Part shown: positions 8,912 through 64,000 of the stretch, in pieces
How the letters are laid out: each line of letters opens with the position of its first letter
Position numbering within the stretch: the stretch's first letter is position 1
NCBI GenBank assembly: GCA_020718645.1
Contig: DYRQ01000002.1
Location: forward strand, 4,781 to 68,780
DNA: 64,000 nucleotides
DNA from: Verrucomicrobium spinosum
GTDB lineage: Bacteria > Verrucomicrobiota > Verrucomicrobiia > JADLBR01 > JAIBCM01
Direction of reading: 5' to 3'
Position numbers and translations under genes: made by a program
The notes under the pieces: model-generated
Databases searched by the model: none
What the model saw: only the letters and a program-made list of their open reading frames with translations
What the model was told of the DNA's origin: nothing

Positions 8912-8935
8912 AAGGGTGGTTCTTCGTGAGGGCGG

Positions 8936-26067: not shown

Positions 26068-26180
26068 AGATTGCTTAACCTTGCCGCCTACAGCGCCGCC
26101 CGCAAGTGGAAAAGCTGTTTCCTAGGAACTCTACTCCTATCGTTCAAGCAGGATGATACCGGGAACAGAAATGTGTGCAA

Positions 26181-26200
26181 AACCCAGATTAACCCAGATT
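26181..26200. repeat. Perfect tandem duplication of the 10-mer AACCCAGATT
   Basis: Directly seen: aacccagatt aacccagatt at 26181-26200, in the intergenic region ahead of the AT-rich island gene. Confidence 0.9.
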
Positions 26201-26265
26201 TTGCAATAGCAAGCGATAGGTGCAGATGCGAGGCGTAAGCTCGCCTGTGCTTGTGGGTGATGCTG

Positions 26266-26281
26266 TTGTAATGTATTACAA
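26266..26281. promoter_or_regulatory. Perfect palindrome TTGTAAT-GT-ATTACAA (candidate operator) about 115 nt upstream of the island ORF
   Basis: The 7-bp arms are exact reverse complements with a 2-nt spacer. A small hairpin AGGCG-TAAGCT-CGCCT lies just upstream (26231-26246). Confidence 0.3.
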
Positions 26282-26395
26282 AACACTAGAAGCATGGTAG
26301 CTGACTAGTCTCCCAGCCCAACTGAAGTAACAAAATAGTGTCACTTCTAGCACCTCTTGATTGGCTGTGTATTTTCTGATCTAAATATGCAATAA

Positions 26396-28630
26396 ATGAA
26401 ACATCTCCAGAAAATCGTAGCGATTATTTCTGTGGTTGTGTTTCAAATCATGGATTCTACAGTGCTGGCAATGGATGTAGATGTAGATGGCATGAGCGAA
26501 GTTTGGCAGAGACTACATACCATTGCTTCGGGCGATCAAAGCTCAGATCTCGACGGGGATGGTCAGACTAACGGAATAGAGGCTGCTGCCGGCACAAACC
26601 CAAGAAACCCGAACGATGTCTTCCGTGTGGAAAGTTTGGATTTTGCAGAGGACTTGTCGGAGGTTACCCTCGTATGGAGAAGTTTTCCGGCTCTCTTTTA
26701 CTCCGTCCAAATGTCTGAAAACCTTCAGGATTGGTCTTTGGTAGGGAGTGTTCTCGGACATTCTGGAGCCAGTCAAACTAGCTTCTCTCTGACTTTGTCG
26801 TCACCGTCTTTACCCAAAGCATTTTTTCGTGTTCTGGCAGATGCAAACTCTAGCCCTGATACGGACGGAGACGGGCTTCAAGATTGGGAAGAGCATCTTC
26901 TACAAACGAGCATCTACATCACAGACACAGACGGCGATGGAATACCTGATGGCGCAGAATTTTCCTATGGACTCAATCCCCTATTAGCAGAGGACGCAGC
27001 GCTGGATGCGGATAGCGACGGACAGTCGAACGGACAAGAATACCAGAACGGAACCAACCCTCAATCCTCCTTGTCCAAAATGCCATCTCCTGCAGTGCGA
27101 TATGCCGTGATAGATTGCGGAGAGGGAGTGGCCATTGATCTCAACGATTCTGGACATGTGTTAGTGTGGAGTGGCTCACCGCGTCAATACCTCTTTGCAG
27201 AGGGAGATCGGGTTGGGTTGAGTAACGAATATCCCGCCTGTGTAGGAAACGATGGCACCGTGGCTGGCCCTAGTCAATTCGACGGCAACGGAGGGGGCAG
27301 AAAAGGTTTTCTGGAAAATTCTGGTTCTTCATTTTACGGTTTCTACAATGATTGGATAAAAGATGAACCTGGTCCGTGTTGGATCAATGACATCAGTTCG
27401 CTAGGCATACAAGTGGGCTCAATAATGGATGATGGTTCGCACCCTTATCCCTGTTATTACTTGCAAGGCGGGCAGGCCATATTGCTCAATACACCTACAG
27501 TGCAAAGCGGGAATCAGTCTTTCAGAGGGGGAGGCTATGCTTCCGCCATACACGAGGGCGGCCCGAATGGGCAGATTGTGGTGGGCATGCTGTTTGATTT
27601 TAGTATAGGAGACTTCGTGCCTGCAATGTGGTTGAATGGGAGTTACACGCTGATGCAAAATAGTTATGAGTCAGCGTATTTATCTGGAGTCAATATGTTC
27701 AAACAAGCAGTGGGTAGCGGAGGGTCACAGGCACTGCTCTGGGACAACGGACAAAAGCCCCTAGGGCATGGCAAAGCATGGGGAATCAATAGTCGTCAAA
27801 AGGATGGGCAATCCCGTCCGTTAATAGTAGGGGGAGATGGTGGCCATCATGAAAAAGATGGTCTTGGCAGCGATGACAAGGGGGTGTTCTGGGAGCAGCC
27901 GGTTCTCGAAGATGGCTCGCTGGATAGTCACTTTGAAGCGTATTATTTCGACGATGTCATAGTGGATAAAAGAACTTGGAATATCAACACGGCTGTAGCC
28001 GTCAACGAAGCATGCCAAGTTGCAGCCTCTGCCACAAACTTACAAACTGGTAAAACACATGCCGTCCTCCTCCTGCCGATCGAGGTAACAGACTTCAAGG
28101 CCGAGGATTATGGGACGGGAATTGAAACATCAGGGGTCTATCGCAAGGTTAACCTACAACCCGGAGATGTAGTTGTTTGGGGGAGATCGCTCGTTTCGGC
28201 AATCGTTAAAGTTCCCAATGGTTTTTCGAATACAATCATAGAACCTAGAATTGTCCAAGATGTTACACCGAATAGAACGCGCAATTTCACAACTCCTACT
28301 TCCCAAGGCCATACTAAAGAAATCATGCAATACCAAAACCAAAAGGTTTTGGATAATGTGCTTGATGAAAGTTGGGTAGAGCTGATTACAATTAGGCGAC
28401 TAGCACAGGATGTATTAATCGAGTCAAGGGATCAGCCTGAGCAGGGTGGAGGACCAGAGCACAGTGGAATAATTATAGCTGATAAGTTTGACGCTTATCT
28501 CCAATGCAATGTTTTTGGTCAAGGGTGGAGCACCTATGGAAAAGTTGAGTGGAGATTTAACGCTAATCTAAGCCGAAGCGGAAGCTCTTGGACTGGCAGT
28601 GCTGCGATTCGGGTGGAAGCGGGCGTTTAA
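26396..28630 (+). CDS. Large secreted protein with thrombospondin-type-3-like Ca-binding repeats (AT-rich island gene)
   Basis: It has a signal peptide (MKHLQKIVAIISVVVFQIMDSTVLA). Repeated D-x-D-x-D-G motifs are present (DLDGDGQTNG, DTDGDGLQDWEE, DTDGDGIPDGAE, DADSDGQSNGQEYQNGTNP). A long Gly/Trp/Asn-rich C-terminal region has no recognisable family. GC content is clearly lower than in the flanks. Confidence 0.6.
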   Translation: MKHLQKIVAIISVVVFQIMDSTVLAMDVDVDGMSEVWQRLHTIASGDQSSDLDGDGQTNGIEAAAGTNPRNPNDVFRVESLDFAEDLSEVTLVWRSFPALFYSVQMSENLQDWSLVGSVLGHSGASQTSFSLTLSSPSLPKAFFRVLADANSSPDTDGDGLQDWEEHLLQTSIYITDTDGDGIPDGAEFSYGLNPLLAEDAALDADSDGQSNGQEYQNGTNPQSSLSKMPSPAVRYAVIDCGEGVAIDLNDSGHVLVWSGSPRQYLFAEGDRVGLSNEYPACVGNDGTVAGPSQFDGNGGGRKGFLENSGSSFYGFYNDWIKDEPGPCWINDISSLGIQVGSIMDDGSHPYPCYYLQGGQAILLNTPTVQSGNQSFRGGGYASAIHEGGPNGQIVVGMLFDFSIGDFVPAMWLNGSYTLMQNSYESAYLSGVNMFKQAVGSGGSQALLWDNGQKPLGHGKAWGINSRQKDGQSRPLIVGGDGGHHEKDGLGSDDKGVFWEQPVLEDGSLDSHFEAYYFDDVIVDKRTWNINTAVAVNEACQVAASATNLQTGKTHAVLLLPIEVTDFKAEDYGTGIETSGVYRKVNLQPGDVVVWGRSLVSAIVKVPNGFSNTIIEPRIVQDVTPNRTRNFTTPTSQGHTKEIMQYQNQKVLDNVLDESWVELITIRRLAQDVLIESRDQPEQGGGPEHSGIIIADKFDAYLQCNVFGQGWSTYGKVEWRFNANLSRSGSSWTGSAAIRVEAGV

Positions 28631-28685
28631 CCGCTGAGGAGCCAGTGATGCAGCCAAACATTCATCCCGTTCAGTTTGTCCCTCA

Positions 28686-29381
28686 ATGAAATCGCGGCAT
28701 ATAATATTTGTCCTATTCATTGCGACGCTCATGCAGAGAAGCATGGCCGCCCAAAATGCTAGTGACATTGGTTTCAATATGAAACCAACCCCGTTTGATG
28801 CCTATGCGGCGGCAACCCAAGATACTTTACCTCGGTTGGAGCCATATTTTCGTGCCTATAAAGAAGCTGAAAAACAGGGCGACAAAGTTCAGAAGGAAGC
28901 CATGCTTCACCAGATCGTTCTTCGCAATACGCTAGAAAACTGGAGATGGCAATTTTACCAATACGGTATACAGAACGAACAGAAACTTTCTGATCGCGAG
29001 CGGGCGGTATGGAAAATGATCAACACGATGTTTGCAGGACGGACTGCACCTCCGAACCCTGAAAACATGCTCCGAATTCCTCCCGAACAAATACGAGAAT
29101 CTATAATTCGAGAAAAAGAAGAGTTCAATAAGACGTTGACGGCTTTTGATAGCGGTAATTTCGGGAACAAGCCACTGCCTACGACTATAACACCGACCGC
29201 AGGTGTGCAAACAACACCCGCTCCATCAGTGGCGACGCCGGTTCAACAGGCCCAAACGGCCATGTCGCCAACGGTGGCGCAAACCCAATCCACGCTGGGC
29301 TTCCCCTTCGTGCCGGTGACAATACTCGCAGCGGTGATCGTGGGAATCGTCCTTTACCTCCTTCGCCGTAAATCGAAGTGA
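28686..29381 (+). CDS. Hypothetical secreted protein with C-terminal TM anchor and basic tail (island gene)
   Basis: It has a signal peptide (MKSRHIIFVLFIATLMQRSMA) and a Thr/Pro/Gln-rich linker. The C-terminus is GFPFVPVTILAAVIVGIVLYLLRRKSK, a hydrophobic helix plus RRK reminiscent of a sorting-signal architecture, but it lacks a PEP motif. Confidence 0.5.
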   Translation: MKSRHIIFVLFIATLMQRSMAAQNASDIGFNMKPTPFDAYAAATQDTLPRLEPYFRAYKEAEKQGDKVQKEAMLHQIVLRNTLENWRWQFYQYGIQNEQKLSDRERAVWKMINTMFAGRTAPPNPENMLRIPPEQIRESIIREKEEFNKTLTAFDSGNFGNKPLPTTITPTAGVQTTPAPSVATPVQQAQTAMSPTVAQTQSTLGFPFVPVTILAAVIVGIVLYLLRRKSK

Positions 29382-29524
29382 AATTTGCAAGCAACGCTGG
29401 TGCGTTTGCCGCGCATAGCGACGAACGCCAGCCCTTGGTCAACCGCCGATGAACCGCTCCAAGGAGGAAGTAGGCGAAGCCTGTTTCAACCACCCCCGAC
29501 GCAGAGTCCGGTATAATCAGGGTC

Positions 29525-30829
29525 TTACTCGCCGTAAAAACCAGCGAGATCCCAGACTTTGCGTCCAGATACAAAAGTGGCCACGGCACGCCCGCGCAGG
29601 GTCTGCCCGTGGAATGGGGTGTTGCGACTCTTACTAGCAGATTGATGTTTGTCCACCGTCCAAGGTGTCTCGGTATCCAAGACAGTGATGTCTGCCTCAG
29701 CGCCTTCGGCCAAAGTGCCTTTGGGGATTTGCAGGAGTTTGGCGGGGTTCATCGTGAGCGCCCGCACGATGTCCATGAGCGGGATGCCATGGCGGTGGTG
29801 GAGATGCTCGAGGAAAAGACCCGCCTCTGTTTCAAGGCCGAGTATGCCGAAGGGTGCTTCCTGGAACTCTACTTCTTTTTCAAAATCGCAGTGCGGCGCG
29901 TGGTCGCTGGCTAATATGTCAATCACCCCTTCACGAAAAGCCTCCACGAGTGCATCGGCATCTGCCTGGGTGCGCAGGGGCGGGTTCATCTTGAAATTCG
30001 TGTCATAACCCTCGAGGCCGGCATCGGTGAGAGCAATGTGGTGGGGGCAGATTTCGCCGCTGATCGGGACGCCGCGGCTGCGGGCTTCGCGGAGGATGCG
30101 GGCACCTCCAGCAGTGGTGACATGCTGGCAGTGGACACGGTGGCGAGTGAGGTCGGCCAGCATGGCGTTGCGTGAGATCATGATTTCCTCAGCGATGGCT
30201 GGCCAGCCATGCAGACCGAGGACGGTGCTCCAGTAGCCTTCATTCATCACGCCATCGGCGGTGAGCGATTCGTCTTGGCAATGGTCGAGGATGGGCAATC
30301 CGACCATGTGGGCATGTTCGAAAGCGCGGCGCATGAGTTCGGCGCTCTGGATGCAACGACCATCGTCACTGAGCGCCACGACACCCGCTTTTTTCAGCGA
30401 GGCAAACGGGGCGAGAACTTCACCTTTTTGACCTTGGGAAAGGCAACCGCAGACCAAGACATGAACGCAGGCTTTTTCTTGGGCCCGCTGCCGGATCCAT
30501 GCCACGGTGCTGGCTGAGTCGGTGACTGGGATGGTGTTGGGCATCGCCAAGATCGTAGTGAAACCGCCAGCGGCGGCAGCGCGGGAGCCAGTTTCTATCG
30601 TTTCCTTGTCCGGGCGCCCAGGTTCGCGCAGGTGGACATGGAGATCAATCAGGCCAGGGCAGACAACCAGACCCGTGGCATCAAACTCCTCCACACCCGA
30701 AAGCCCGCGCAGGGCATTGGGGGAGACGAGGACGCCATCGAGGGCTGCGATGTCGCGGAGGGTATCGGTGCCGGAGGCCGGGTCGAGAACGCGGCCGTTT
30801 TTGATGAGAAGTGGGTGGCTCATGGTCAA
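29525..30829 (-). CDS. pyrC: Dihydroorotase
   Basis: The sequence contains LIKNGRVLDP...GLIDLHVHLREPG, the metal-binding signature of the amidohydrolase family. It lies in a pyrR-pyrB-pyrC operon. Confidence 0.9.
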   Translation of the reverse strand: MTMSHPLLIKNGRVLDPASGTDTLRDIAALDGVLVSPNALRGLSGVEEFDATGLVVCPGLIDLHVHLREPGRPDKETIETGSRAAAAGGFTTILAMPNTIPVTDSASTVAWIRQRAQEKACVHVLVCGCLSQGQKGEVLAPFASLKKAGVVALSDDGRCIQSAELMRRAFEHAHMVGLPILDHCQDESLTADGVMNEGYWSTVLGLHGWPAIAEEIMISRNAMLADLTRHRVHCQHVTTAGGARILREARSRGVPISGEICPHHIALTDAGLEGYDTNFKMNPPLRTQADADALVEAFREGVIDILASDHAPHCDFEKEVEFQEAPFGILGLETEAGLFLEHLHHRHGIPLMDIVRALTMNPAKLLQIPKGTLAEGAEADITVLDTETPWTVDKHQSASKSRNTPFHGQTLRGRAVATFVSGRKVWDLAGFYGE

Positions 30830-48295: not shown

Positions 48296-48781
48296 TCAGG
48301 AAGCAGGGTGATGGTGCGAGTGGTCCGCCGTGGTTTCGCGCAGGCGCTGCGCCAAGTGCCTCGCCAGTTCATAGCAGACTTTGGCGGCTATGGATCGGTT
48401 GGTCTGGATGATCTGCAAAAATTCTGGACGGAAAAAACCGATGAGTTCTGTGGGCTCAGTGGCTCGCGCCTGTGCGGACCGAGGGGTGCCTTCCAAGAGA
48501 GCCACTTCTCCGAAAAACATGCCTGAGCCAAACTTCGCCAACTCCTTGCGTTTATTGAGCAAGCCACCCGTGGAGATGCTGACACTCCCTTGGATGACCA
48601 CATAGAGGCCAAGGCCTTCCTCTCCTTGGTCGAAAATGATTTCGTCCTTATCATAGAATCGTTCGTGCATGAGCCCCTCGAGCGTGGCGATTTCTTTGCT
48701 CGTGAGCTGGGAGAACAGGGGAATAGTCTTCAAGATGCCCACGCGCGGGCTGTCGTTTTTTTTGTCGAAGATCATGGGCAC
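48296..48781 (-). CDS. Stand-alone cyclic nucleotide-binding domain protein
   Basis: A cNMP-binding fold (FGEVALLEGTPRSAQARA) with no effector or HTH domain. It ends in a His-rich tail, DHSHHHPAS. Confidence 0.8.
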   Translation of the reverse strand: MPMIFDKKNDSPRVGILKTIPLFSQLTSKEIATLEGLMHERFYDKDEIIFDQGEEGLGLYVVIQGSVSISTGGLLNKRKELAKFGSGMFFGEVALLEGTPRSAQARATEPTELIGFFRPEFLQIIQTNRSIAAKVCYELARHLAQRLRETTADHSHHHPAS

Positions 48782-49829: not shown

Positions 49830-50792
49830 ATGAGGAGGGTCTTGGTAGGCTGGTTCGCGCAGGCGGCGCGAGACTTGCCATGGCGCAAGCAGCGCACCCC
49901 TTACACGGTGGTTGTTTCCGAGTTCATGCTCCAGCAGACTCAGGTGTCACAAGTGATAGAGTATTTTAACCGATGGATGCGTCTTTTCCCCTCGTGGCGT
50001 GAGCTGGCGCGGGCCGAGGATGCCGTAGTGCGGAAGGCGTGGGAAGGGCTGGGTTATTACAGCCGCGCGACCCGTCTGCGGGATGTAGCCCGGAGTGTGA
50101 TGGATAACCATTGTGGCGAGCTGCCGAGAGATATTGATGTTTTGAAAAAACTGCCAGGCTTTGGCGACTACACGCTCGGTGCTGTGGCGAGCATGGCCTT
50201 CGGGTTTCCTCTTGCGGCAGTGGACGGCAATGTAGCCAGAGTCTTGTCGCGGGTGGCGGGAGAACCCGACGGGTGGCGTGATCCATCGCAGCGCAAGTCT
50301 TGGCGGGAGTTGGCTGAGAAGTTGCTCGACCGGAGAGAGCCGGGGCTTTTCAACGAAGCCTTGATCGAGCTGGGGGCTACAGTCTGCACTCCCTCGTCTC
50401 CTCGGTGTGCCGAGTGCCCGTGGCAGCAGTGGTGTCCTACGGCTGGCATGATGCTGGAGAATCGGGTCGCTCAGAGTCCGAAAGCTTCCAAGAAAATCGA
50501 GCTTTCCCAGAGGGTGGCGTGGGTAGTTTATCGGGGCAAACTTGCCTTGAAGGAATCGGCTGGCCCGTGGTGGAAAGGGCTTTGGGTTTTGCCGCCTGTG
50601 GAACAGGGAACGGGTGCAGTTCTAGCCTCCAGTGCTTTCACGGTGACTCGCCACAAGGTCCATCTTCAAGTTCTCCAGGGCACACGGTCTGAGGTGCAAG
50701 GATGCGTGTGGCATTCTCTCGACCAGCTCGAGGCCCTGGCTATGCCCGCCCCGCATCGCAAGGTGGTGAACCATCTGATCGGTCTGGACTAG
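49830..50792 (+). CDS. mutY: A/G-specific adenine DNA glycosylase
   Basis: The HhH-GPD domain, the 4Fe-4S loop CTPSSPRCAECPWQQWC and a C-terminal NUDIX-like domain are present. An alternative upstream ATG at 49775 overlaps the rnhC start. Confidence 0.85.
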   Translation: MRRVLVGWFAQAARDLPWRKQRTPYTVVVSEFMLQQTQVSQVIEYFNRWMRLFPSWRELARAEDAVVRKAWEGLGYYSRATRLRDVARSVMDNHCGELPRDIDVLKKLPGFGDYTLGAVASMAFGFPLAAVDGNVARVLSRVAGEPDGWRDPSQRKSWRELAEKLLDRREPGLFNEALIELGATVCTPSSPRCAECPWQQWCPTAGMMLENRVAQSPKASKKIELSQRVAWVVYRGKLALKESAGPWWKGLWVLPPVEQGTGAVLASSAFTVTRHKVHLQVLQGTRSEVQGCVWHSLDQLEALAMPAPHRKVVNHLIGLD

Positions 50793-50905
50793 ATAGAGCG
50801 AGTTTGCCCACCACCAGCTTGCACTCCTCACTCACATTTACTGCGGAGTTGCGGGCTTCGGAGTTGACACCGAGGCAGTGAGGTTGTAGCCACCTCCTAC
50901 AGGCT

Positions 50906-51670
50906 ATGCACCACGAAACCATCGAGCCAGGCCAAGTGATTTTCATGGAAGGTCAATCTGGCCGTTCCGCCTACCGCGTGCTCAGCGGTAAAATTCAAAT
51001 TTACACCACCCGCGACAGCAAGCGCGTGGTCTTGGCCGAGATTGATCCCGGCGACATTTTTGGAGAGATGGCTATTTTGCAAGACAGACCGCGCTCGGCG
51101 AGTGCTGTGGCGTTGGAGCGCTCTGAGGTCGAGGTGCTTTCAGATTATGATTTCAACGAAATGATCATCTCCCAGCCCGCGCGGCTGCTGCCTTACTTGG
51201 CCACATTTTTCGAGCGGCTCCGGCATGCCAATGATCTGCTGAAACGCCACGGGATTTCAACAGGAACGGTGCTCGATATGCCAGATCCAGGACGGGTTCC
51301 CACAGTGAAGGTTTTTGTCGAAAGCGGCATACCGGGACTTCCCCTCGAGCCAGCGGTGCAGGTGCCGAAATTTCCTTTCCGCATCGGCCGTGCTTTGGAG
51401 TCTGGAGAAAGTGCCACGCTCTTTCCGAATGACCTGGTGGTTCACGATCAGCCTCCTTACAAAGCCTCCCGCAGCCAGTGTTCCCTCAACCGCCTCGGGC
51501 CACAAATCAGCGTGCGCGACCGTGGTAGCGAGCGGGGCACGATAGTGAATGGCGAATTGATCGGGGACAAAGCTCCCAGTGAAACTTCCAAACCCCTGGT
51601 CATGGGGCGCAACGAAATCCGGCTCGGCGGTATTGATAGCCCCCATCTGCTGGTGGTCGTTCTGAGTTAA
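50906..51670 (+). CDS. Cyclic nucleotide-binding domain / FHA domain fusion protein
   Basis: The N-terminal cNMP-binding domain has GDIFGEMAILQDRPRSASAVA. The C-terminal FHA domain has FRIGRALESGESATL...DRGSERGTIVNGELI. Confidence 0.75.
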   Translation: MHHETIEPGQVIFMEGQSGRSAYRVLSGKIQIYTTRDSKRVVLAEIDPGDIFGEMAILQDRPRSASAVALERSEVEVLSDYDFNEMIISQPARLLPYLATFFERLRHANDLLKRHGISTGTVLDMPDPGRVPTVKVFVESGIPGLPLEPAVQVPKFPFRIGRALESGESATLFPNDLVVHDQPPYKASRSQCSLNRLGPQISVRDRGSERGTIVNGELIGDKAPSETSKPLVMGRNEIRLGGIDSPHLLVVVLS

Positions 51671-51710
51671 TACCCAGAGCGGCGACTGTTGTTTCCCTGC
51701 TCATTATTTT

Positions 51711-52916
51711 GTGAAACACCTCCACCTCGATCCATTTTCAGGCATCAGCGGAGATATGTTCGCCGGAGCGCTCGCCGCACTCGGTGCGTATGAGGACGGC
51801 GTAGTGTTTCGCCAGATGCGCAGCCTCTCCTGTTCGGGTGAGTTTTCTCTGGAAGTTCAGCCTGTGCTGAAAAGAGGGATTGCTGCCACGAGTTTTCGGG
51901 TGAATGTGCTGGTGCCTCCCCGGTTGCCAGCCGGTGAACCCACGCGAGGTATTACAGAAATAGGGCGCATGATCGAGGCGGCCCAATGGCCGGAGCCTGT
52001 CACACGACGAGTCATGGCCGTGTTTCGTCGCCTCGCGGTGGCCGAGGCAAAAATCCACGGTGTCGCCGAGGAGGAAGTGCATTTTCACGAGGTGGGTGCT
52101 GTAGATGCCATTGCGGATATTAGCGCTGTCTGCTTGGGCCTAGCACATTTGGAGTGCGTGTCTGTGACCTCGTCGGTTCCTGTGGATGGTAGTGGGACAG
52201 TCTCATGCAGTCACGGTGTTCTGCCCATCCCAGTCCCCGCGACGCTCGAACTTTTGCGAGGCATCCCTGTGCAGGCGTGTGCCGTGCCGTTTGAGATGAT
52301 TACACCCACAGGCGCAGCACTGCTGGCTGAGTTTGCTTCATCCTACGGTTCTGCGCCAGCCCTGAGCCTTGAGAAAATTGGCTATGGGGCAGGGAGCCGA
52401 GAGCTTCCGGATCGAGCCAATGTCTTGCGCGCCTACCTAGGACATACCTTGTCCGAGACTCGAGAGGAGAGCGTCTTCTGCTTGGAAGCCAACCTTGATG
52501 ACGCGCAGCCACAGCTTTTAGCAGATGCACTGGAGCAACTCATGAAAGCGGGTGCCTTAGATGTCACCATTGCCCCGGTGCTCATGAAAAAAGGGCGTCC
52601 GGCCCATGTGCTATCCGTGCTGTGCCGCCCAGAGGATCGCGAGAGATTGGCCGATGAGATCCTGCTCAGCACCCCATCGTTTGGTGTTAGATTTTACGAA
52701 TGTCAGAGACGGGTGCTGGAACGGGACATGGTCGAGGTTCCAACCTGTTTTGGTCTGATTGCCATCAAGCTCGGACGGTTGCGTGGCGAACTCCTCCAAG
52801 CCTCTCCCGAATACGAGTCCGTGCGACTAGCCGCAGAACGGACAGGCAAACCTTGGCGTGTCGTATGGGCTGAAGCCTTCTCCTCGGCGCAAGGATTCTT
52901 ACGCAGCCAGAGATGA
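51711..52916 (+). CDS. larC: LarC family nickel-pincer cofactor insertase (DUF111)
   Basis: The N-terminus MKHLHLDPFSGISGDMFAGALAALG is the hallmark of the family, and the protein is 401 aa. Confidence 0.85.
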   Translation: MKHLHLDPFSGISGDMFAGALAALGAYEDGVVFRQMRSLSCSGEFSLEVQPVLKRGIAATSFRVNVLVPPRLPAGEPTRGITEIGRMIEAAQWPEPVTRRVMAVFRRLAVAEAKIHGVAEEEVHFHEVGAVDAIADISAVCLGLAHLECVSVTSSVPVDGSGTVSCSHGVLPIPVPATLELLRGIPVQACAVPFEMITPTGAALLAEFASSYGSAPALSLEKIGYGAGSRELPDRANVLRAYLGHTLSETREESVFCLEANLDDAQPQLLADALEQLMKAGALDVTIAPVLMKKGRPAHVLSVLCRPEDRERLADEILLSTPSFGVRFYECQRRVLERDMVEVPTCFGLIAIKLGRLRGELLQASPEYESVRLAAERTGKPWRVVWAEAFSSAQGFLRSQR

Positions 52917-52952
52917 ATAAGGCATCAGGTCAGCAGTAGAGGCTCGCAGGTG

Positions 52953-53603
52953 TTAGGGCACCTGAGGCATGATAGCGCTCACGCGAATAACTCCACGAAA
53001 TTCACCTTCCCGGAAACCTTTGGCTTGGTCGTCGGGATACAGTTCGCGAATCTTGGCTGAAATCCCCGAGGGAATCTGAGTTTCTGGGCCATGGCAGATG
53101 AGGCACGCAGCCCCTGTGAGCACGGGTTTGTAATAACGAACTTCCACGCGTCCGCCGTTCTCGATGGCTTGGACATAATCTTTCGGTGGCGAGGGTGCCA
53201 AGAATATCTTGAGAGCTTCAGATTCAGCCGCGTCGGGATTGTTGAATGGGTTTCGGATTTTGTGCGAAGTGCGTTTGATGGTGATGACGCTGTTCGCGCC
53301 GTGTTTTGCTGCGATTGCGTGAGTGAGGCTGATGGCGTTATTTTTACAGACTTCAATTCCAGCTTCGGGGCCGAGTGCGGCTATTTCAGCCGTCATTCGT
53401 GCAAGCAAAGAGGCGGCTAGCTCTCCGGCAATGGGTTCACAAAGCCGTCTGATCCAAGTTGCTTCTTCGGGGGATGCCGCTCGAAATTGAGTTTTGGGTG
53501 GTTGCGGCGAGCAGGCGCTCAGTAAGGAAATAACCAGTAGGCCGCTGATCTGGAGGCACAGGCGAATCCAGAGCCGACCAGAGTGATCAGGGTTGTTTTT
53601 CAT
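52953..53603 (-). CDS. DUF3365 / Tll0287-like c-type heme-binding lipoprotein
   Basis: It has a signal peptide with a lipobox (LLSAC) and a single CxxCH motif (CLICHG) near the C-terminus. Confidence 0.65.
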   Translation of the reverse strand: MKNNPDHSGRLWIRLCLQISGLLVISLLSACSPQPPKTQFRAASPEEATWIRRLCEPIAGELAASLLARMTAEIAALGPEAGIEVCKNNAISLTHAIAAKHGANSVITIKRTSHKIRNPFNNPDAAESEALKIFLAPSPPKDYVQAIENGGRVEVRYYKPVLTGAACLICHGPETQIPSGISAKIRELYPDDQAKGFREGEFRGVIRVSAIMPQVP

Positions 53604-53739
53604 CGGATGGCGGTAGGGGTTTGTTTTTCACGAAGCATCTGCCGAGCACGCACAGAGGGCAATCTTTGAAAACTACGCCAACGACAATCCATCCCACAAC
53701 AAATGCCAAGGCCAAATAAGGGAGCAATGATTTCATCAT
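53587..53739 (-). CDS. Small membrane ORF (50 aa) with a Cys cluster. It falls below the ORF-track size cutoff.
   Basis: The manual reverse-strand translation from ATGATG at 53739 gives MMKSLLPYLALAFVVGWIVVGVVFKDCPLCVLGRCFVKNKPLPPSDEKQP*. It has one TM helix and a CPLC...C cluster, and overlaps the DUF3365 start by 17 nt. Confidence 0.25.
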   Translation of the reverse strand: MMKSLLPYLALAFVVGWIVVGVVFKDCPLCVLGRCFVKNKPLPPSDEKQP

Positions 53740-53797
53740 AATTAGTTATTCTTCGCGTTGTTGATTCTGGAGCGATCGCTGACGCAAGGCAAGGGGT

Positions 53798-54400
53798 TTA
53801 GTGGTCGCCCTCTTTCTGGCAGCAAGTGCCACAGGGTTCGTGTTCCGTAGTGCGCGGGCCTTTGGTTTCGATCAGCCAATAGACCACTCCAGCTACTACT
53901 GCCAAGAGGAGAACCCAAGCAGGGGCGGGGACTCCAGAGATTTCAGGCAGAGAGATTTTGCCGAGCTTGCCCCAAGTGAACAGTTTCTCCGTAATCCAAG
54001 GATAAGAGAGTGCGTAGGCGATGCCGCCAGCTATCATACCTAGGAATCCAAAGGCCGCATGTAAACTGCCCGAGGCCGTCGCCGCCACGGCTGTGCCTGG
54101 GCAATAGCCGTAGAGCACCATGCCGACACCGAAGATCAAAGCCCCGTAGATGACACCCGGCATGAGAGCTGGTTTCACATGCAGGTTCACTAAGCCCATG
54201 GGCTGGAGGATGGCGATAGCTGCCCCACCGACCACGATGGCGGTGAACATGATTTTCAGCACGGTGAAGTCTTGGAACAAGAACTGTCGCACGATGGTGT
54301 TGTAGCGGGTCACGCCTCCGAAATGGAGCAGTGCACCGAAGATGGATCCAAAAATGACGGCCATCAAGAGGGCGTCGTTGCCAGAGATAAATGCGATCAT
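53798..54400 (-). CDS. YeeE/YedE family sulfur-transport protein (half-size, DUF395)
   Basis: Its TM helices carry the conserved LYGYCPGTAV motif. Confidence 0.8.
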   Translation of the reverse strand: MIAFISGNDALLMAVIFGSIFGALLHFGGVTRYNTIVRQFLFQDFTVLKIMFTAIVVGGAAIAILQPMGLVNLHVKPALMPGVIYGALIFGVGMVLYGYCPGTAVAATASGSLHAAFGFLGMIAGGIAYALSYPWITEKLFTWGKLGKISLPEISGVPAPAWVLLLAVVAGVVYWLIETKGPRTTEHEPCGTCCQKEGDH

Positions 54401-54429
54401 AGATTTTTTCCTAGTATTTTCCTAATAGA

Positions 54430-54960
54430 TTATTTTTTGGTTTTGAACATCAGCATGGCCGTGGCCACACCGGAGACAAACATGACGAGAAAGAAAGTCC
54501 AACTGCTCACTGCGAGTTGCATTGTTCCAGCGATGCCGTGACCGCTGGTGCAACCGTCGGCCATGCGGGCTCCAAAGAGGATCAGGAACCCACCAGCAAA
54601 AGCAGCCGCCATGCGGAGGGGCACCGAAGAACCGAAGCGCTCACGCCAGACGCTCGGAACAGTCTCCCAATGGAAAGAGCGGCTGAGGAGCGCGGCAGCC
54701 AAGGCACCCAAGCCCGAGCCCAGCAGGAAGAGCGTGCTGTAGTCCCAGCGAGGAACCGCTTTTTTCGACCAGTAAGCGTTAGCGGCCACCGTCTCTTGAC
54801 CCAAGATGGGCATGGCACAGGCACCCGAGGTTTGGGCGATGGCGGTGGACATGCCGAGAGGTTTGTCAGCCACCAAGAGAGTGACGACACCGAGCAAGCC
54901 AATGGCAGCACCGATCAAGTAGGGCTGAGCCCGCTTCAGACAAGAACAGTTTATATTCAT
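54430..54960 (-). CDS. YeeE/YedE family sulfur-transport protein (second half-size paralogue)
   Basis: The conserved MADGCTSGHG motif is present. The start is at the internal ATG (MNINCSC). Confidence 0.75.
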   Translation of the reverse strand: MNINCSCLKRAQPYLIGAAIGLLGVVTLLVADKPLGMSTAIAQTSGACAMPILGQETVAANAYWSKKAVPRWDYSTLFLLGSGLGALAAALLSRSFHWETVPSVWRERFGSSVPLRMAAAFAGGFLILFGARMADGCTSGHGIAGTMQLAVSSWTFFLVMFVSGVATAMLMFKTKK

Positions 54961-55024
54961 AGTATGAACATATAGCAATAAAATGAAAACGCAAGGGTTC
55001 TTGTGAATTATTTTGATAGGCTTC

Positions 55025-55618
55025 TCAGGCTTTGCGAAATAGTTGCCGCAGCACGAGTTTGTTCTCGGCAAAAAACTGCGACTGAAATTCCGATAGTGGA
55101 TAGCCGGGCTCTGGACGCCAGTATTCCATCTGGAACTCAGGGTGCTGGAGGAACAATTCCATGATCCAGCAGAAATAGCCTGGGTGATCCATCGTGACTC
55201 GTAATTCTCCCCCCGGTTTCAGGGCTGTGCAACAGTCTCGGATGAATCCATGTTGGAAGAGGCGGTGTTTGAAATGTTTTTTCTTCGGCCACGGGTCAGG
55301 GTGCATGACATGGATTACATCCACTGACTGCGCCGGGATCAAATAGCGCACGGTATAGGCTGATTCGAGGCGCAACACCCGCAGGTTGGACAGGGAACCG
55401 CGCAGGGCTTTGCGAGCGATTTTTCTGGCTCTGCCCAACAATCTTTCCAAGGCGAGGAAGTGGGTATCCGGGTTGCTCTGTGCCATGGCGGCGACGAAAC
55501 CGCCATCGCCTGCGCCCAGTTCCACCTCAACGCGAGATGAAGGCGCACCGAAGATCCCGTCCCAGTCTAGCCGCTGGCAGAGGTCGGTGACCGGTAGAAA
55601 ATAGTCGTGCTCAGTCAT
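55025..55618 (-). CDS. trmB: tRNA (guanine46-N7)-methyltransferase
   Basis: The SAM-binding motif VEVELGAGDGGFVAAMA is present. Confidence 0.9.
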   Translation of the reverse strand: MTEHDYFLPVTDLCQRLDWDGIFGAPSSRVEVELGAGDGGFVAAMAQSNPDTHFLALERLLGRARKIARKALRGSLSNLRVLRLESAYTVRYLIPAQSVDVIHVMHPDPWPKKKHFKHRLFQHGFIRDCCTALKPGGELRVTMDHPGYFCWIMELFLQHPEFQMEYWRPEPGYPLSEFQSQFFAENKLVLRQLFRKA

Positions 55619-61557: not shown

Positions 61558-63084
61558 ATGGTTTCAAAAATCACTAGCGCAACCACTAGCGGGGTAGATG
61601 CCTTGCCGGTGGAAGTCGAAGTCCACACAGGCAGGGGCAACTTCGTCGTCGTCGTGGTCGGTCTCCCGGATGCTGCTGTCAAGGAATCGCGCGACCGTGT
61701 GAAGACTGCGATGGAAAACTCCGGTTTCCGCCACCCGCAAGGGCGCACCACCATTAACCTCGCTCCTGCTGATTTGAAAAAAGAGGGTCCCGCCTTCGAC
61801 CTGCCCATTGCCCTCGGTATCCTCGCCTCCGACGATCAGATCACAGGTTCCCGGTTGTCGGGTTATCTCTGCACCGGCGAACTAGCTCTCGGCGGCGAAG
61901 TCCGTTGCGTGCGCGGGGTATTGTCCATGGCGCTGGAGGCTAAAAAAATGGGGCTGGGCATTATCGTGCCCCGTGACAACGCCCGCGAAGCTGCTGCCGT
62001 CGAGGGTCTCGAAGTGATTCCAGTCGGCTCCTTGCGCGAATGTGTGGAGTGGCTGGAAGCTCGCCGTGAGATTGCACCCTATCATCTCGACACCACTTCT
62101 CTCTTCAATCAAGCCACCACCGATGACAGCGACTTCGCCGAAGTGCGCGGGCAGGAGAGCGTCAAAAAAGCTTTCGAAATCGCGGCTGCCGGTGGCCACA
62201 ATCTCCTGCTAGTCGGCCCTCCCGGCTCGGGCAAATCCATGCTCAGCAAAAGACTCCCTGGCATCCTCCCGGCTCTCGCACTGGACGAGGCTTTGGAGAC
62301 GACGAAAATTCACAGCGTGGCGGGGCTGCTGACCCCGGGACAATCCTTGGTCACACGCCGCCCGTTCCGCAGTGTTCATCACACGGTCTCGGATGTGGGA
62401 TTAGCCGGTGGCGGCAGCAACCCTTCCCCCGGAGAAATCAGCCTCGCCCACAACGGCGTTCTTTTTCTCGACGAGCTACCTGAGTTCAAGCGTTCGGCTC
62501 TCGAGGTCATGCGACAGCCCTTGGAGGACGGTCATGTCACCATCTCCCGTGCCTCGGGCACGATGCGTTACCCCGCCCGGTTCATGTTGGTTGCCGCCAT
62601 GAATCCCACGCCCGACGGTAAGTCCATCCGCGAATCAAAATCCACGCCGAACGAAATCCGCCGCTACTTAGCCAAACTCTCCGCCCCTCTGCTCGACCGT
62701 ATTGATATCCATGTCTCTGTCGAGGCCGTGAAAGTCCACGAATTGACTGGCGCCGAAACCGGCGAAAGCTCCGCCACGGTGCGGGCCAGAGTCGAAGCTG
62801 CCCGCGCCCTGCAAACAGCCCGCTTCCGAGCAGCCAAGAAAAAAACCTCCTGCAACGCGCACATGAGCGGACGGGAAATCCGCCAGTTTTGCGCCTTGGA
62901 TGAAGCAGGGACCTCCATTTTCAAACATGCCCTCCACGACACGGGTATCTCCGCCCGCGCCCATGACAAAATCCTGAAAGTCGCTCGCACGATAGCCGAC
63001 CTCGACGGCGCTCCTACCATCAGCGAAAACCATCTTCTCTTGGCCATCAGCTTCCGCGAACTAGACCGTCAGCTCTGGGGCTGA
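61558..63084 (+). CDS. comM: YifB/ComM family Mg-chelatase-like AAA+ ATPase
   Basis: An N-terminal Lon-like domain is followed by an AAA+ core (GPPGSGKSM) and a C-terminal ChlI domain. Confidence 0.9.
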   Translation: MVSKITSATTSGVDALPVEVEVHTGRGNFVVVVVGLPDAAVKESRDRVKTAMENSGFRHPQGRTTINLAPADLKKEGPAFDLPIALGILASDDQITGSRLSGYLCTGELALGGEVRCVRGVLSMALEAKKMGLGIIVPRDNAREAAAVEGLEVIPVGSLRECVEWLEARREIAPYHLDTTSLFNQATTDDSDFAEVRGQESVKKAFEIAAAGGHNLLLVGPPGSGKSMLSKRLPGILPALALDEALETTKIHSVAGLLTPGQSLVTRRPFRSVHHTVSDVGLAGGGSNPSPGEISLAHNGVLFLDELPEFKRSALEVMRQPLEDGHVTISRASGTMRYPARFMLVAAMNPTPDGKSIRESKSTPNEIRRYLAKLSAPLLDRIDIHVSVEAVKVHELTGAETGESSATVRARVEAARALQTARFRAAKKKTSCNAHMSGREIRQFCALDEAGTSIFKHALHDTGISARAHDKILKVARTIADLDGAPTISENHLLLAISFRELDRQLWG

Positions 63085-63123
63085 ATTAACCACTTGACAT
63101 CTACTGAAACCAAAACACACACA

Positions 63124-64000
63124 TTATTGTATTATGCATATTATACGAAAATTTTTTGCCCTACATTTTTTTACCATTATGGTGGCTCAGTTCTCTCATG
63201 AATTAGCAAGAGCAGAAAACAATTCGTCTCATATTGAAACTAATGCACAAGCATCCTCAAATATCACAGCTACAGAATATACAACTTCCAAATCTACATT
63301 AAAACCATCTCTTTTTGTGGACAGCGAAATTAGTTTGGTAACTATAACAGGAAAGTCGTATGACAAAGCTGTAATTAAGGAAATTGGAATAGATTATATA
63401 AAACTTATGCACTCTTCAGGTATTGCGAAAATACCCAAAAGAGACATACCTGATGACATTATAAATATGTTAGGTCCATGCACAACAAAGGCTGTTGTGC
63501 AAAATACTCAAACTATCGCAGTTAGCGCGGATCAAAGTGAACTTATCAAACAACAGGCGACTAACTTAAATATAACTCAACCTACACAACAACAGGAGCA
63601 AGTTTTAATAACTTCAAGTGGTTATAAATTCTTTTTAAATGATTTAATCAGTAGAAGTGGACAGATGACATCACATGCTAATGCAGCAAAAGGATACATG
63701 TATGCTACAGGTCCTTTAAAGGGAAAGACACAAGGAGAAGGGGAGGTGTATGCAAGGGGGTTGTGGGATAAAATGAACTACAATGAACAACTAGAGTGGC
63801 AAACCAAGGCTAACTTTTACAGCAAGGGCAGAAGTCAAAAAGTAAGCGCAGAAATTACTGCTCCTACTGCGGCTGGTTTTAACTTTTATTATAAAGACTT
63901 AGTTGATCGAAGTGGCCAGATGGCAGGGCATGAAGGAAATGCCAAAGGTGCAGTATATTCTACCGGCCCTTTGAAAGGAAAGACTCGCGGAGGAGCTCAG
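63124..64000 (+). CDS. Partial CDS running off the window end. AT-rich gene for a secreted protein with tandem repeat modules of about 75 aa, unknown family.
   Basis: It is not in the ORF track because it has no in-window stop. The manual translation is MHIIRKFFALHFFTIMVAQFSHELARA... and it contains two near-identical modules: FLNDLISRSGQMTSHANAAKGYMYATGPLKGKTQGEG and YKDLVDRSGQMAGHEGNAKGAVYSTGPLKGKTRGGAQ. Local GC content is far below the window average. Confidence 0.5.

Follow-up and report, generated by a model that had tools for sequence, protein, structure and literature searches.

A cyclic-nucleotide-binding/FHA fusion gene beside larC in a small lineage of Verrucomicrobia

Organisation of the locus

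The window analysed here is a stretch of 64,000 nucleotides belonging to a 79-kb contig of a Verrucomicrobiota MAG. It contains a gene for a protein that joins a cyclic-nucleotide-binding (CNB) domain to an FHA domain, followed on the same strand by larC. Both open reading frames were located at the positions given for them in an earlier note on this DNA, and the 40-nt spacing reported there was confirmed by measurement. The features of the locus, together with three further signalling genes of the window, are as follows.

50793..50905, forward strand: intergenic region of 113 nt between the co-directional mutY and the fusion gene (sequence)
50906..51670, forward strand: coding sequence of the 254-aa cNMP-binding/FHA fusion protein, ATG start, TAA stop (ORF and Pfam)
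50918..51166, forward strand: cyclic-nucleotide-binding beta-barrel, aa 5-87 (Pfam PF00027, E 4.4e-23)
51059-51103, forward strand: phosphate-binding cassette FGEMAILQDRPRSAS, aa 52-66 (family alignment)
51176..51250, forward strand: long C-terminal helix of the CNB module, aa 91-115 (AF2 model helix H91-115)
51251..51304, forward strand: linker of variable length and low confidence, aa 116-133 (AF2 and alignment)
51305..51664, forward strand: FHA-type beta-sandwich, aa 134-253, with the Pfam core at aa 159-221, nt 51380-51568 (PF00498, AF2)
51671..51710, forward strand: spacer of 40 nt between the fusion gene and larC (sequence)
51711..52916, forward strand: coding sequence of LarC, 401 aa, GTG start (Pfam PF01969, NCBIfam LarC1/LarC2)
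51711..52439, forward strand: LarC1 domain, aa 1-243 (residues mapped onto M. thermoacetica LarC)
52473..52826, forward strand: LarC2 (CTP-binding) domain, aa 255-372 (NF052512, 135 bits)
48296-48781: stand-alone cNMP-binding protein (Pfam)
8936-10615: FHA + sigma54 AAA+ protein (Pfam)
7706-8911: GAF + HD-GYP-type HD_5 protein (Pfam)

The MAG's own annotation places the two starts 13 and 15 codons later, giving proteins of 241 aa (fusion) and 386 aa (LarC). The longer forms are favoured here. The ATG at 50906 is supported by an N-terminal MxHE that is conserved in the alignment among homologues of 253-256 aa, and the N-terminus of the longer LarC aligns from residue 1 of Moorella LarC.

Cyclic-nucleotide-binding half of the fusion protein

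The AF2 model of the fusion protein has a two-domain architecture with a mean pLDDT of 79. Its N-terminal domain scores 81.5 bits against the Pfam cNMP_binding model (PF00027; cut-off 27.5), and the phosphate-binding cassette (FGEMAILQDRPRSAS) fits the Gly-Glu and Arg-Ser/Thr-Ala pattern, with G53, E54, R63, S64 and A65 invariant in 17 of 17 aligned family sequences. Foldseek matched this half to the cAMP-bound domains of Bd1971, T. thermophilus CAP and M. tuberculosis CRP (E ~1e-9), and cAMP or cGMP is the predicted ligand.

The beta-barrel and C-helix fold is common to the fusion protein, Bd1971 (6hq3, a Bdellovibrio EAL enzyme) and T. thermophilus CAP (4ev0), with Foldseek E-values of ~2e-9 and 31-35% identity to these two; the profile of the fusion family matched Bd1971 at E 3e-25. 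Unlike the CRP/PKA-type comparators, the fusion protein has no N-terminal helix ahead of beta-1, because it begins at the barrel, and its output domain is an FHA domain, whereas theirs is EAL or HTH. The helix at aa 91-115 carries a near-invariant P..L.PY...FFERLR..N motif in the family alignment and, by comparison with the C-helix of CRP and PKA, is likely to serve as a signal-relay or dimerisation helix. The linker behind it has a pLDDT below 50 at aa 115-129, corresponds to a gapped region of the alignment (columns 130-200), and is 60 aa longer in a 314-aa subfamily.

Homologues are named CRP/FNR transcription factors in some sources, a designation that was rejected here since no HTH match was found in the fusion protein. 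The CRP/FNR models of NCBIfam match the CNB part alone (aa ~5-109), with scores far under their cut-offs.

FHA half of the fusion protein

Pfam detects an FHA domain (PF00498) at aa 159-221 with an E-value of 6e-6 and a score of 27 bits (gathering cut-off 20.7), and the domain was detected in all 17 aligned family members (best E 6.5e-12). In the AF2 model the C-terminal domain is all-beta, with pLDDT mostly 76-92. Compared on its own with PDB sequences, this half gave a marginal match (E 0.18) to a GGDEF protein's FHA domain (6hc0), so that membership of the FHA family rests on Pfam and the family alignment; Foldseek matches of the whole model were dominated by the CNB domain and uninformative on the FHA half.

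The fusion protein has in common with bacterial FHA proteins (PF00498, e.g. 6hc0) a beta-sandwich, here predicted, and the GR, SR and GS..GT.VNG motifs. GR161-162 and S188 are kept, R162 and S188 being invariant in the family alignment. The phosphate is bound mainly by the Arg of GR and the Ser of SRxx in characterised FHA domains (Rad53 FHA1). The protein differs from bacterial FHA proteins in having Gln (Q191) in place of the canonical His and Arg (R210) in place of the Asn, in the joining of its FHA domain to a CNB sensor, and in a gene neighbourhood without a kinase or phosphatase partner. The His of SRxH is present in most family members and is Gln in this sub-clade, and the Asn position of S-x-N-G varies across the whole fusion family.

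These two substitutions run against the description of the protein in the earlier note as a phospho-threonine adaptor. A tentative alternative, which we consider possible rather than probable, is that the FHA-like domain does not read phospho-threonine and that the protein is a cNMP-gated phospho-independent interaction module, or a cNMP buffer, outside Ser/Thr kinase signalling. The Gln of this sub-clade, the family-wide variability of the Asn position and the weak match of the isolated half to FHA sequences in the PDB all point in that direction, as does the lack of a Ser/Thr kinase or PP2C among the scanned or annotated window genes and the conserved neighbour families checked. It is countered by the family-wide invariance of the GR Arg and the SRxx Ser, and by the SRxH His that most members have kept.

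Other signalling genes in the window

The earlier note had placed the pair in an elaborate second-messenger and FHA network that also comprised an FHA-sigma54 activator, a second cNMP-binding protein and an HD-GYP protein. All three of these were indeed found in Pfam scans, but the wider network was not supported: the FHA-sigma54 and HD-GYP genes are ~40 kb distant from the fusion/larC locus, amid housekeeping genes, and the window genes that were scanned or annotated include no cyclase, Ser/Thr kinase or PP2C.

Identity and residue conservation of LarC

LarC was compared with the family models PF01969, TIGR00299 and NF052512. The Pfam Ni_insertion model (PF01969) aligns over profile positions 1-374 of 375 (E 3.7e-125, 418 bits), and over 51711-52916 the NCBIfam LarC1 model scores 192 bits (cut-off 90) and the LarC2 model (NF052512) 135 bits (cut-off 50). 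The protein aligns along residues 1-395 to M. thermoacetica LarC (LarC_Mt; PDB 12bi) with an E-value of 1.4e-80, and its LarC2 domain matches the crystal structure of LarC2 from L. plantarum (6bwo; E 4.4e-19), the MKKGRP motif being conserved.

Mapping onto LarC_Mt places the nickel-binding His cluster of the LarC1 domain at H116, H124, H126 and H168, with an acidic pocket of D15, R79, E112, E127, D132, D136 and E195. All 11 critical residues of LarC_Mt (D15, R71, E104, H108, H116, H118, E119, D124, D128, H160 and E187) are kept. In published mutagenesis of LarC_Mt, substitution of these 11 residues by Ala markedly reduced or nearly abolished activity, the effect at H116 being more moderate. 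The counterparts of Mt H53, H70, H72 and H226 in the window protein are R55, T78, G80 and D234, which are variable positions; in the Mt enzyme H72A was without effect, and H53A and H226A left ~60% of the activity.

The LarC1 + LarC2 organisation is shared with M. thermoacetica and L. plantarum, and is encoded in the window by one ORF, without the larC1/larC2 frameshift of L. plantarum. Unlike the LarCs of these two species, the window protein is without the variable loop rich in His that precedes the conserved Arg (aa 67-80). Also not shared with LarC_Mt are H53 and H226, which are of moderate importance, and Y180, N238 and Q241, which belong to a cleft that the LarC_Mt paper itself describes as poorly conserved. 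As judged from its sequence, the window LarC is a standard, intact CTP-dependent nickel insertase (cyclometallase).

Other lar genes

In contrast to the LarC systems of M. thermoacetica and L. plantarum, the window larC has no larA, larB or larE nearby, and the gene is not part of a clustered larA-larB-larC-larE operon. The search for these genes covered the long non-overlapping ORFs of the window by Pfam, with precomputed Pfam results used for 40.5-43.5 kb and 55-63 kb, as well as the contig beyond the window, to its right end on one side and over 4.7 kb on the left. No LarA (DUF2088), LarB (AIRC) or LarE-type gene was found among the genes scanned or annotated in these regions of the 79-kb contig, in agreement with the earlier statement that the window holds none of the three.

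The further step of calling this LarC an orphan was not upheld, since a single 79-kb MAG contig is insufficient for such a call, the LarC itself is of standard type, and lar genes are scattered in a related Verrucomicrobium. In that relative a LarB equivalog (301.7 bits) lies 3.4 kb upstream of larC and no larE was found within 8 kb of larC (16 kb examined), which indicates that lar genes are dispersed in the phylum. In surveyed genomes, larB, larC and larE occur without larA in ~15% of cases (PMC11796402), and among predictors of cofactor synthesis LarC is regarded as the best (PMC13524815). "Orphan" calls made from one window are unsafe.

It is very unlikely that this LarC is a true orphan, working without larB and larE in some other function such as a nickel-handling or CTP-hydrolysing role recruited into signalling. 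Such a role would be compatible with the failure to find larA, larB and larE on the 79-kb contig, with the absence of the His-rich loop that is present in other Verrucomicrobial LarCs, including that of the closest relative of this locus (L088), and with the lack of the Trm112p-GT2 partners of three other Verrucomicrobial larC loci, which have the order larC-Trm112p-GT2. Against it, 79 kb is a small part of a genome, LarB is present and the lar genes are dispersed in the related Verrucomicrobium, and both NCBIfam equivalog cut-offs are well exceeded. Conservation is complete at the nickel site and in the substrate pocket for the pyridinium intermediate, which argues for the canonical LarC substrate.

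Distribution of the fusion family and its neighbourhoods

The fusion protein is, on sequence grounds, a member of a large, uncharacterised and mostly Verrucomicrobial family of more than 800 database proteins. The family search returned 846 database matches at E <= 0.001, and all 120 of the matches listed, mostly from Verrucomicrobia, contained both PF00027 and PF00498. A full-text literature search, not aimed at the pairing, returned no description of a cNMP/FHA-LarC pair or of a bacterial cNMP+FHA protein family, consistent with the earlier remark that the arrangement is not a described one.

The one other occurrence of the pair is in the closest relative, L088, where the fusion protein is 69% identical, the gap is ~21 nt and larC likewise has a GTG start, and where the upstream gene is not mutY. 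A metagenome scan for close relatives of the fusion protein added none: it recovered the 58% relative, which was already known, and a single CNB protein that is unrelated, so the sub-clade stays at two members. Elsewhere, a tblastn search with LarC gave no match within up to 10 kb of 86 other loci, of which 24 are full-length family loci belonging to different GTDB species and six come from two closer relatives, and LarC was likewise absent at a further locus (L089, P0012). In total, LarC lies near none of 28 other distinct full-length fusion-family loci, and a cNMP/FHA gene lies beside larC in none of the three other Verrucomicrobial larC loci.

The neighbouring genes differ from relative to relative, being a TonB_C protein with a 4-nt overlap next to the 58% relative, a convergent gene next to the 51% relative and YkuD next to the 48% relative. 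Neighbour families are conserved within sub-clades only, and the downstream partner varies from clade to clade; the neighbours seen within sub-clades include DnaB, Maf, redoxin, a GlcD-like oxidase, glycerate kinase, a PQQ propeller and an enolase-superfamily protein. A conserved partner that would explain the fusion family was considered and rejected, since neighbours are shared within sub-clades only and are mostly housekeeping or metabolic.

Transcription signals and gene spacing

The 113-nt region 50793..50905 is presumed to hold the promoter or ribosome-binding site of the fusion gene, and a consensus scan found no sigma-70-like site in it. Consensus scanning of the locus for promoters and terminators found none in the 40-nt gap and no excess over shuffled sequences. 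No inverted repeats were found in the intergenic regions of the locus, and 51671..51710 contains neither a terminator-like hairpin nor an obvious Shine-Dalgarno sequence. An Rfam scan of 50000-54500 at E <= 1 returned zero matches.

The fusion gene and larC are probably co-transcribed, and the upstream mutY is possibly in the same transcript. Genes are tightly packed in this genome, and same-strand gaps of 40 nt are usual in it even where the neighbours are unrelated housekeeping genes: on this contig leuS and a WD40 gene are separated by 45 nt, a cNMP gene and rnhC by 42 nt, and NIF3 and RadC by 6 nt.

Interpretation of the gene pair

The adjacency of the two genes is real and lineage-specific, and the functional coupling proposed for them is unproven and weakly supported. 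The earlier note was therefore accurate on the architecture of the fusion protein, on the adjacency and on the missing nearby lar genes, and went too far on the orphan status, the coupling, the network and the phospho-threonine adaptor. Coupling is opposed by the absence of LarC from the other family loci and of cNMP/FHA genes from the other larC loci, and by the downstream partners that vary between clades. The reading that we consider probable is that two ordinary genes of known families have become neighbours in one small Verrucomicrobial lineage and do not form a conserved functional module.

Under this reading, the first gene would encode a soluble, one-component-like signalling protein with an N-terminal CNB domain and an intact phosphate-binding cassette, in which the conserved C-helix (FFERLRxxN) and a flexible linker lie between the CNB domain and a divergent FHA domain. 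Mechanistically, binding of cAMP or cGMP would most likely reposition the C-helix and so alter the binding partners of the FHA domain. As this domain lacks the canonical His and Asn, partner recognition may have weak or no dependence on phospho-threonine. LarC would CMP-ylate pyridinium-3,5-bisthiocarboxylate mononucleotide and insert nickel, yielding the nickel-pincer nucleotide cofactor, and would be expected to work with larB and larE, assumed to be present elsewhere in the genome. Co-transcription would then reflect compact gene packing and a lineage-specific rearrangement.

Two findings run counter to this reading: the pair and the GTG start are kept in L088 despite the different upstream gene, which is what a functional operon would look like, and scans detected neither a terminator nor a promoter between the genes. 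It is unlikely, though somewhat less so than an orphan LarC, that the two genes form a lineage-specific functional operon in which the cNMP/FHA protein regulates LarC post-translationally, for instance by docking of its FHA domain on the LarC hexamer upon cAMP or cGMP binding, or in which both are co-expressed for one pathway. Such an operon would fit the same-strand arrangement with gaps of 40 nt in the window and 21 nt in L088, the retention of the pair by both known members of the sub-clade, and the lack of a detected terminator or promoter signal between the genes in scans of the gap. A loose precedent for a CNB-fold regulator next to lar genes may be LarR, a Crp/FNR-type protein that reportedly controls the lar operon of L. 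plantarum and senses lactate enantiomers. LarR, which combines an HTH DNA-binding domain with a sensor domain of the CNB fold class, would resemble the fusion protein in being a CNB-fold sensor encoded beside lar genes; unlike LarR, the fusion protein has an FHA domain and a canonical cNMP cassette, and no HTH.

Several observations weigh against a functional operon. The two occurrences are just two observations of one shared ancestral rearrangement, neither gene has the other beside it in the 28 and three other loci, respectively, the fusion protein is without a DNA-binding domain, and equally short gaps separate unrelated genes here. The LarCs of the window and L088 are 50% identical and not clearly mutual closest relatives (365 vs 354 bits one way and 351 vs 370 bits the other). 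No distinctive insertion or Thr-rich motif suited to be an FHA target is common to them, and their loops at aa 67-80 are wholly different. That a co-transcribed cNMP-sensing FHA protein acts directly on LarC is more doubtful still; if it does, nickel-cofactor insertases would gain their first post-translational or second-messenger regulator.

The two genes regarded as ordinary neighbours leave on record a fusion family of more than 800 proteins with an intact cNMP cassette, a divergent FHA domain and no conserved genomic partner. If the operon were functional, nickel-pincer cofactor synthesis would be under second-messenger control in this clade, and the pairing would connect cyclic-nucleotide signalling with nickel-pincer cofactor biosynthesis for the first time, giving a handle on the role of a large, unstudied Verrucomicrobial cNMP+FHA family.

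Organisation of the locus

The fusion gene, which joins a cyclic-nucleotide-binding (cNMP-binding, CNB) domain to an FHA domain, is followed by larC, encoding the CTP-dependent nickel insertase of nickel-pincer nucleotide cofactor synthesis.

Coding sequences of the locus
50906-51670, + strand, fusion protein, 254 aa
51711-52916, + strand, LarC, GTG start, 401 aa

An ORF check found both frames where the earlier note had placed them, and reading of the sequence confirmed its 40-nt gap; on the + strand, mutY is separated by 113 nt from the fusion gene and the fusion gene by 40 nt from larC, after which comes a convergent gene. Similar same-strand gaps are usual on the contig, including those between unrelated neighbours (leuS/WD40, 45 nt; cNMP/rnhC, 42 nt; NIF3/RadC and RadC/lpxA, 6 nt each), so this spacing is uninformative on its own, or nearly so. 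In and around the gap, a consensus scan detected no promoter-like or terminator-like sites, an inverted-repeat search no hairpins, and an Rfam scan no families. Co-transcription of the two genes is likely. The convergent region (52953-55071, - strand) encodes first a Tll0287-like (PAS-like) protein and next a split pair of Sulf_transp membrane proteins of the YedE/YeeE type (200 and 213 aa), which weakly resemble the thiosulfate transporter TsuA.

In the deposited annotation (GCA_974337675.1, contig CDCNCU010000123.1, 78,985 bp) both starts are too late, by 13 codons for the fusion protein (241 instead of 254 aa; window 50906-50944) and by 15 codons for LarC (386 instead of 401 aa; 51711-51755), which removes the catalytic Asp15 region of the latter. 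The longer fusion protein is supported by an MxHE N-terminus conserved in the alignment of 253-256-aa homologues, and the longer LarC by the alignment of Moorella thermoacetica LarC (LarC_Mt) from residue 1, catalytic D15 included. Database matches to both proteins carry names such as Verrucomicrobiota and Verrucomicrobiae.

LarC and the distribution of lar genes

LarC spans the entire Pfam Ni_insertion model (E 3.7e-125) and passes the NCBIfam equivalogs LarC1 (192 bits, cut-off 90) and LarC2 (135 bits, cut-off 50). Residues 1-395 are collinear with full-length LarC_Mt (PDB 12bi, E 1.4e-80), and the crystal structure of Lactiplantibacillus plantarum LarC2 (6bwo) also aligned (E 4.4e-19). Residues were compared by a scripted map onto LarC_Mt, using a 2026 cryo-EM and mutagenesis study (PMC13510736). 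That study describes 11 important residues in a His cluster and acidic pocket (D15, R71, E104, H108, H116, H118, E119, D124, D128, H160, E187), where most Ala substitutions cut activity markedly or nearly to nil and H116A left about 60% (PMC13510736). All 11 are conserved in the window LarC, as D15, R79, E112, H116, H124, H126, E127, D132, D136, H168 and E195. The non-conserved positions are the peripheral histidines H53, H72 and H226, with mild or no phenotype in LarC_Mt, and residues of the interdomain cleft, described there as poorly conserved (PMC13510736). Judged by its residues, the window protein is a predicted canonical LarC. A His-rich loop is missing at aa 67-80 (51909-51950; LVPPRLPAGEPTRG), with the core His cluster intact; at this position the LarC of L088, the contig locus carrying the closest known fusion homologue, has HGHHVGHEHHHGR, and other Verrucomicrobial LarCs have 3-8 His.

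The earlier note had called this LarC an orphan. Its observation that larA, larB and larE are absent nearby holds, as Pfam found no LarA (DUF2088), LarB (AIRC) or LarE-type gene in the window, to the right end of the contig or in 4.7 kb to the left; orphan status itself cannot be established from 79 kb of a MAG, and related lineages have dispersed lar genes. At L091, a larC locus of a related Verrucomicrobium, LarB (301.7 bits on the NCBIfam equivalog, cut-off 175) is encoded 3.4 kb upstream of larC with toxin-antitoxin (TA) cassettes in between, and larE was not found within 8 kb of larC; at two other larC loci (L092, L093) neither larB nor larE was found within 8 kb. Together these loci indicate that lar genes are present yet dispersed in the phylum. 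About 15% of surveyed genomes have larB, larC and larE without larA (PMC11796402), 2,108 of 11,067 LarC homologues have larB and larE without a larA within 20 ORFs, and LarC is used as the strongest single indicator of cofactor synthesis (PMC13524815). A true orphan with a new role is very improbable, since the active site is intact.

The three loci share a gene triad missing from the window, with stops and starts overlapping or nearly so.

larC - Trm112p/YcaR-like gene (57 aa) - GT2 glycosyltransferase (Pfam/NCBIfam)
L091:8001-10098
L092:8001-10119
L093:1666-3817

The best NCBIfam similarity of the GT2 is to arsenosugar/mycofactocin-type glycosyltransferases. In L091 (7378-7954) and L093 (342-1619) a small-ORF/ParE-like TA cassette directly 5' of the intact larC is itself preceded by a 35-40-aa fragment of the LarC N-terminus (PF01969), an arrangement that looks like duplication of the larC 5' end by cassette insertion; the TA genes between larB and larC in L091 include PemK.

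The fusion protein and its family

Pfam assigns a cyclic-nucleotide-binding domain to aa 5-87 (E 4.4e-23) and an FHA domain to aa 159-221 (E 6e-6; 27 bits, gathering cut-off 20.7). PF00498 was matched in all 17 aligned relatives (best E 6.5e-12), and the predicted FHA assignment, marginal on the single window sequence, is solid family-wide. The AF2 model (mean pLDDT 79) has the following parts.

Parts of the fusion protein in the AF2 model
aa 1-79, CNB barrel
aa 80-115, helices
between the helices and the C-terminal domain, disordered linker
aa 134-253, all-beta C-terminal domain

The N-terminal half matches the cAMP-bound CNB domains of Bd1971, CAP, M. tuberculosis CRP and GlxR (Foldseek E ~1e-9). 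In the family alignment the phosphate-binding cassette is invariant (G53, E54 ... R63, S64, A65) and the helix following the barrel is highly conserved (P91, L94, P96, Y97, F101, F102, E103, R104, L105, R106, N109). The family FHA signature is FPFRIGR ... SRxH ... DRGSxxGTxVNG; its His is Gln in the window protein and its closest relative, and the canonical S-x-N-G Asn is conserved nowhere in the family, being Arg in the window protein. Although the phosphate-binding Arg and Ser are retained, this divergence makes the "phospho-Thr adaptor" of the earlier note a hypothesis only.

A database search gave 846 matches (E <= 0.001); among the matches listed, 120 of 120 contain PF00027 and PF00498, with lengths of 253-316 aa and for the most part from Verrucomicrobia. 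A scan of GTDB species genomes found 24 full-length members, chiefly in Verrucomicrobiota (Verrucomicrobiaceae, Akkermansia, Prosthecobacter, Opitutales, Methylacidiphilales, subdivision 6), with a few outliers in Rokubacteria, Desulfobacterota, an anammox planctomycete and Acidimicrobiia. A full-text literature search found no description of a bacterial cNMP+FHA family. By its domains, the window protein is a member of a large uncharacterised family.

Signalling genes in the window

Pfam was run on long non-overlapping ORFs, with precomputed Pfam of annotated genes for 40.5-43.5 and 55-63 kb; the rest of the contig rightward and 4.7 kb leftward were also covered. The surroundings are typical housekeeping genes (metH, ligA, lpxB/lpxI, recA, pyrB/pyrC, leuS, rnhC, mutY, trpC/trpF, ftsY, lpxA), and among the genes scanned or annotated there Pfam found neither a nucleotide cyclase nor a Ser/Thr kinase or PP2C phosphatase.

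Signalling genes identified by Pfam
7706-8911, - strand, GAF + HD-GYP-type (HD_5) protein, 40 kb from the fusion-larC locus
8936-10615, - strand, FHA-sigma54 activator (FHA + sigma54 AAA+), 40 kb from the fusion-larC locus
48296-48781, strand opposite to the fusion gene, stand-alone cNMP-binding protein

These genes, which the earlier note had joined into an elaborate second-messenger and FHA network, do exist, but as an unlinked list and not a cluster, two of them 40 kb away. The stand-alone cNMP gene precedes an AI-2E-family transporter gene and is separated from the fusion gene by rnhC and mutY. The GAF-HD-GYP and FHA-sigma54 genes (7706-10615) are co-directional and 24 nt apart. They form a more plausible signalling pair than any at the larC locus; the activator had no Pfam HTH match at E <= 1e-4.

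GC content, about 0.57 elsewhere in the window, dips to 0.49-0.51 at 26001-30000 and 62001-64000. A 744-aa bacterial TSP3-repeat protein (26396-28630) falls in the first dip together with an unannotated 231-aa ORF; beyond the window, close to the end of the contig, there is a DDE transposase.

Conservation of the gene pair

The closest known fusion homologue (P0002, 69% identity) is encoded on a 2,273-bp JGI contig (L088), where larC, with a GTG start, follows on the same strand after about 21 nt. The upstream neighbour there differs from mutY, so the pair has outlived at least one rearrangement. The two LarCs are only 50% identical and are no clear reciprocal best matches. In the next relatives the downstream neighbour is a TonB_C-domain protein with a 4-nt overlap (58% identity), a convergent gene (51%) or YkuD (48%). 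A tblastn search with the window LarC found LarC at none of 86 other loci, among them those of the 24 full-length GTDB members, which extended by up to 10 kb to either side; no cNMP/FHA gene occurs at the three other Verrucomicrobial larC loci, and a metagenome scan gave no additional close relatives of the fusion protein.

Neighbour clustering in the family is conserved within sub-clades only: Verrucomicrobiaceae have PQQ-propeller/3-keto-disaccharide hydrolase, fusion gene and a convergent enolase-superfamily gene, and another clade has DnaB, Maf, redoxin, fusion gene and GlcD-like oxidase or glycerate kinase. The downstream partner is likewise clade-dependent across family loci (L005-L007, L016, L022, L025-L027 and L089), being TonB_C (4-nt overlap), YkuD, GlcD-like FAD oxidase or glycerate kinase on the same strand, or the convergent enolase-superfamily gene of Verrucomicrobiaceae. 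Several of these partners are hydroxy-acid enzymes, and the nickel-pincer cofactor serves 2-hydroxyacid racemases, a curious correspondence that may be coincidence.

Given the differing neighbours in relatives, the lack of LarC at the other family loci and of cNMP/FHA genes at the other larC loci, the fusion-larC association represents a single event within one small lineage. A true functional operon, to which retention of the pair in both known sub-clade members lends some weight, is unlikely in view of the same distribution. Both genes are of known kinds and, as the earlier note had said of the pairing, their arrangement is not described in the literature searched. The locus is probably best read as a canonical LarC, which would act together with lar genes at other sites in the genome, next to a protein from a widespread family of cNMP-sensing FHA proteins, their adjacency and probable co-transcription reflecting what would be a gene order specific to the lineage, within a compact genome.
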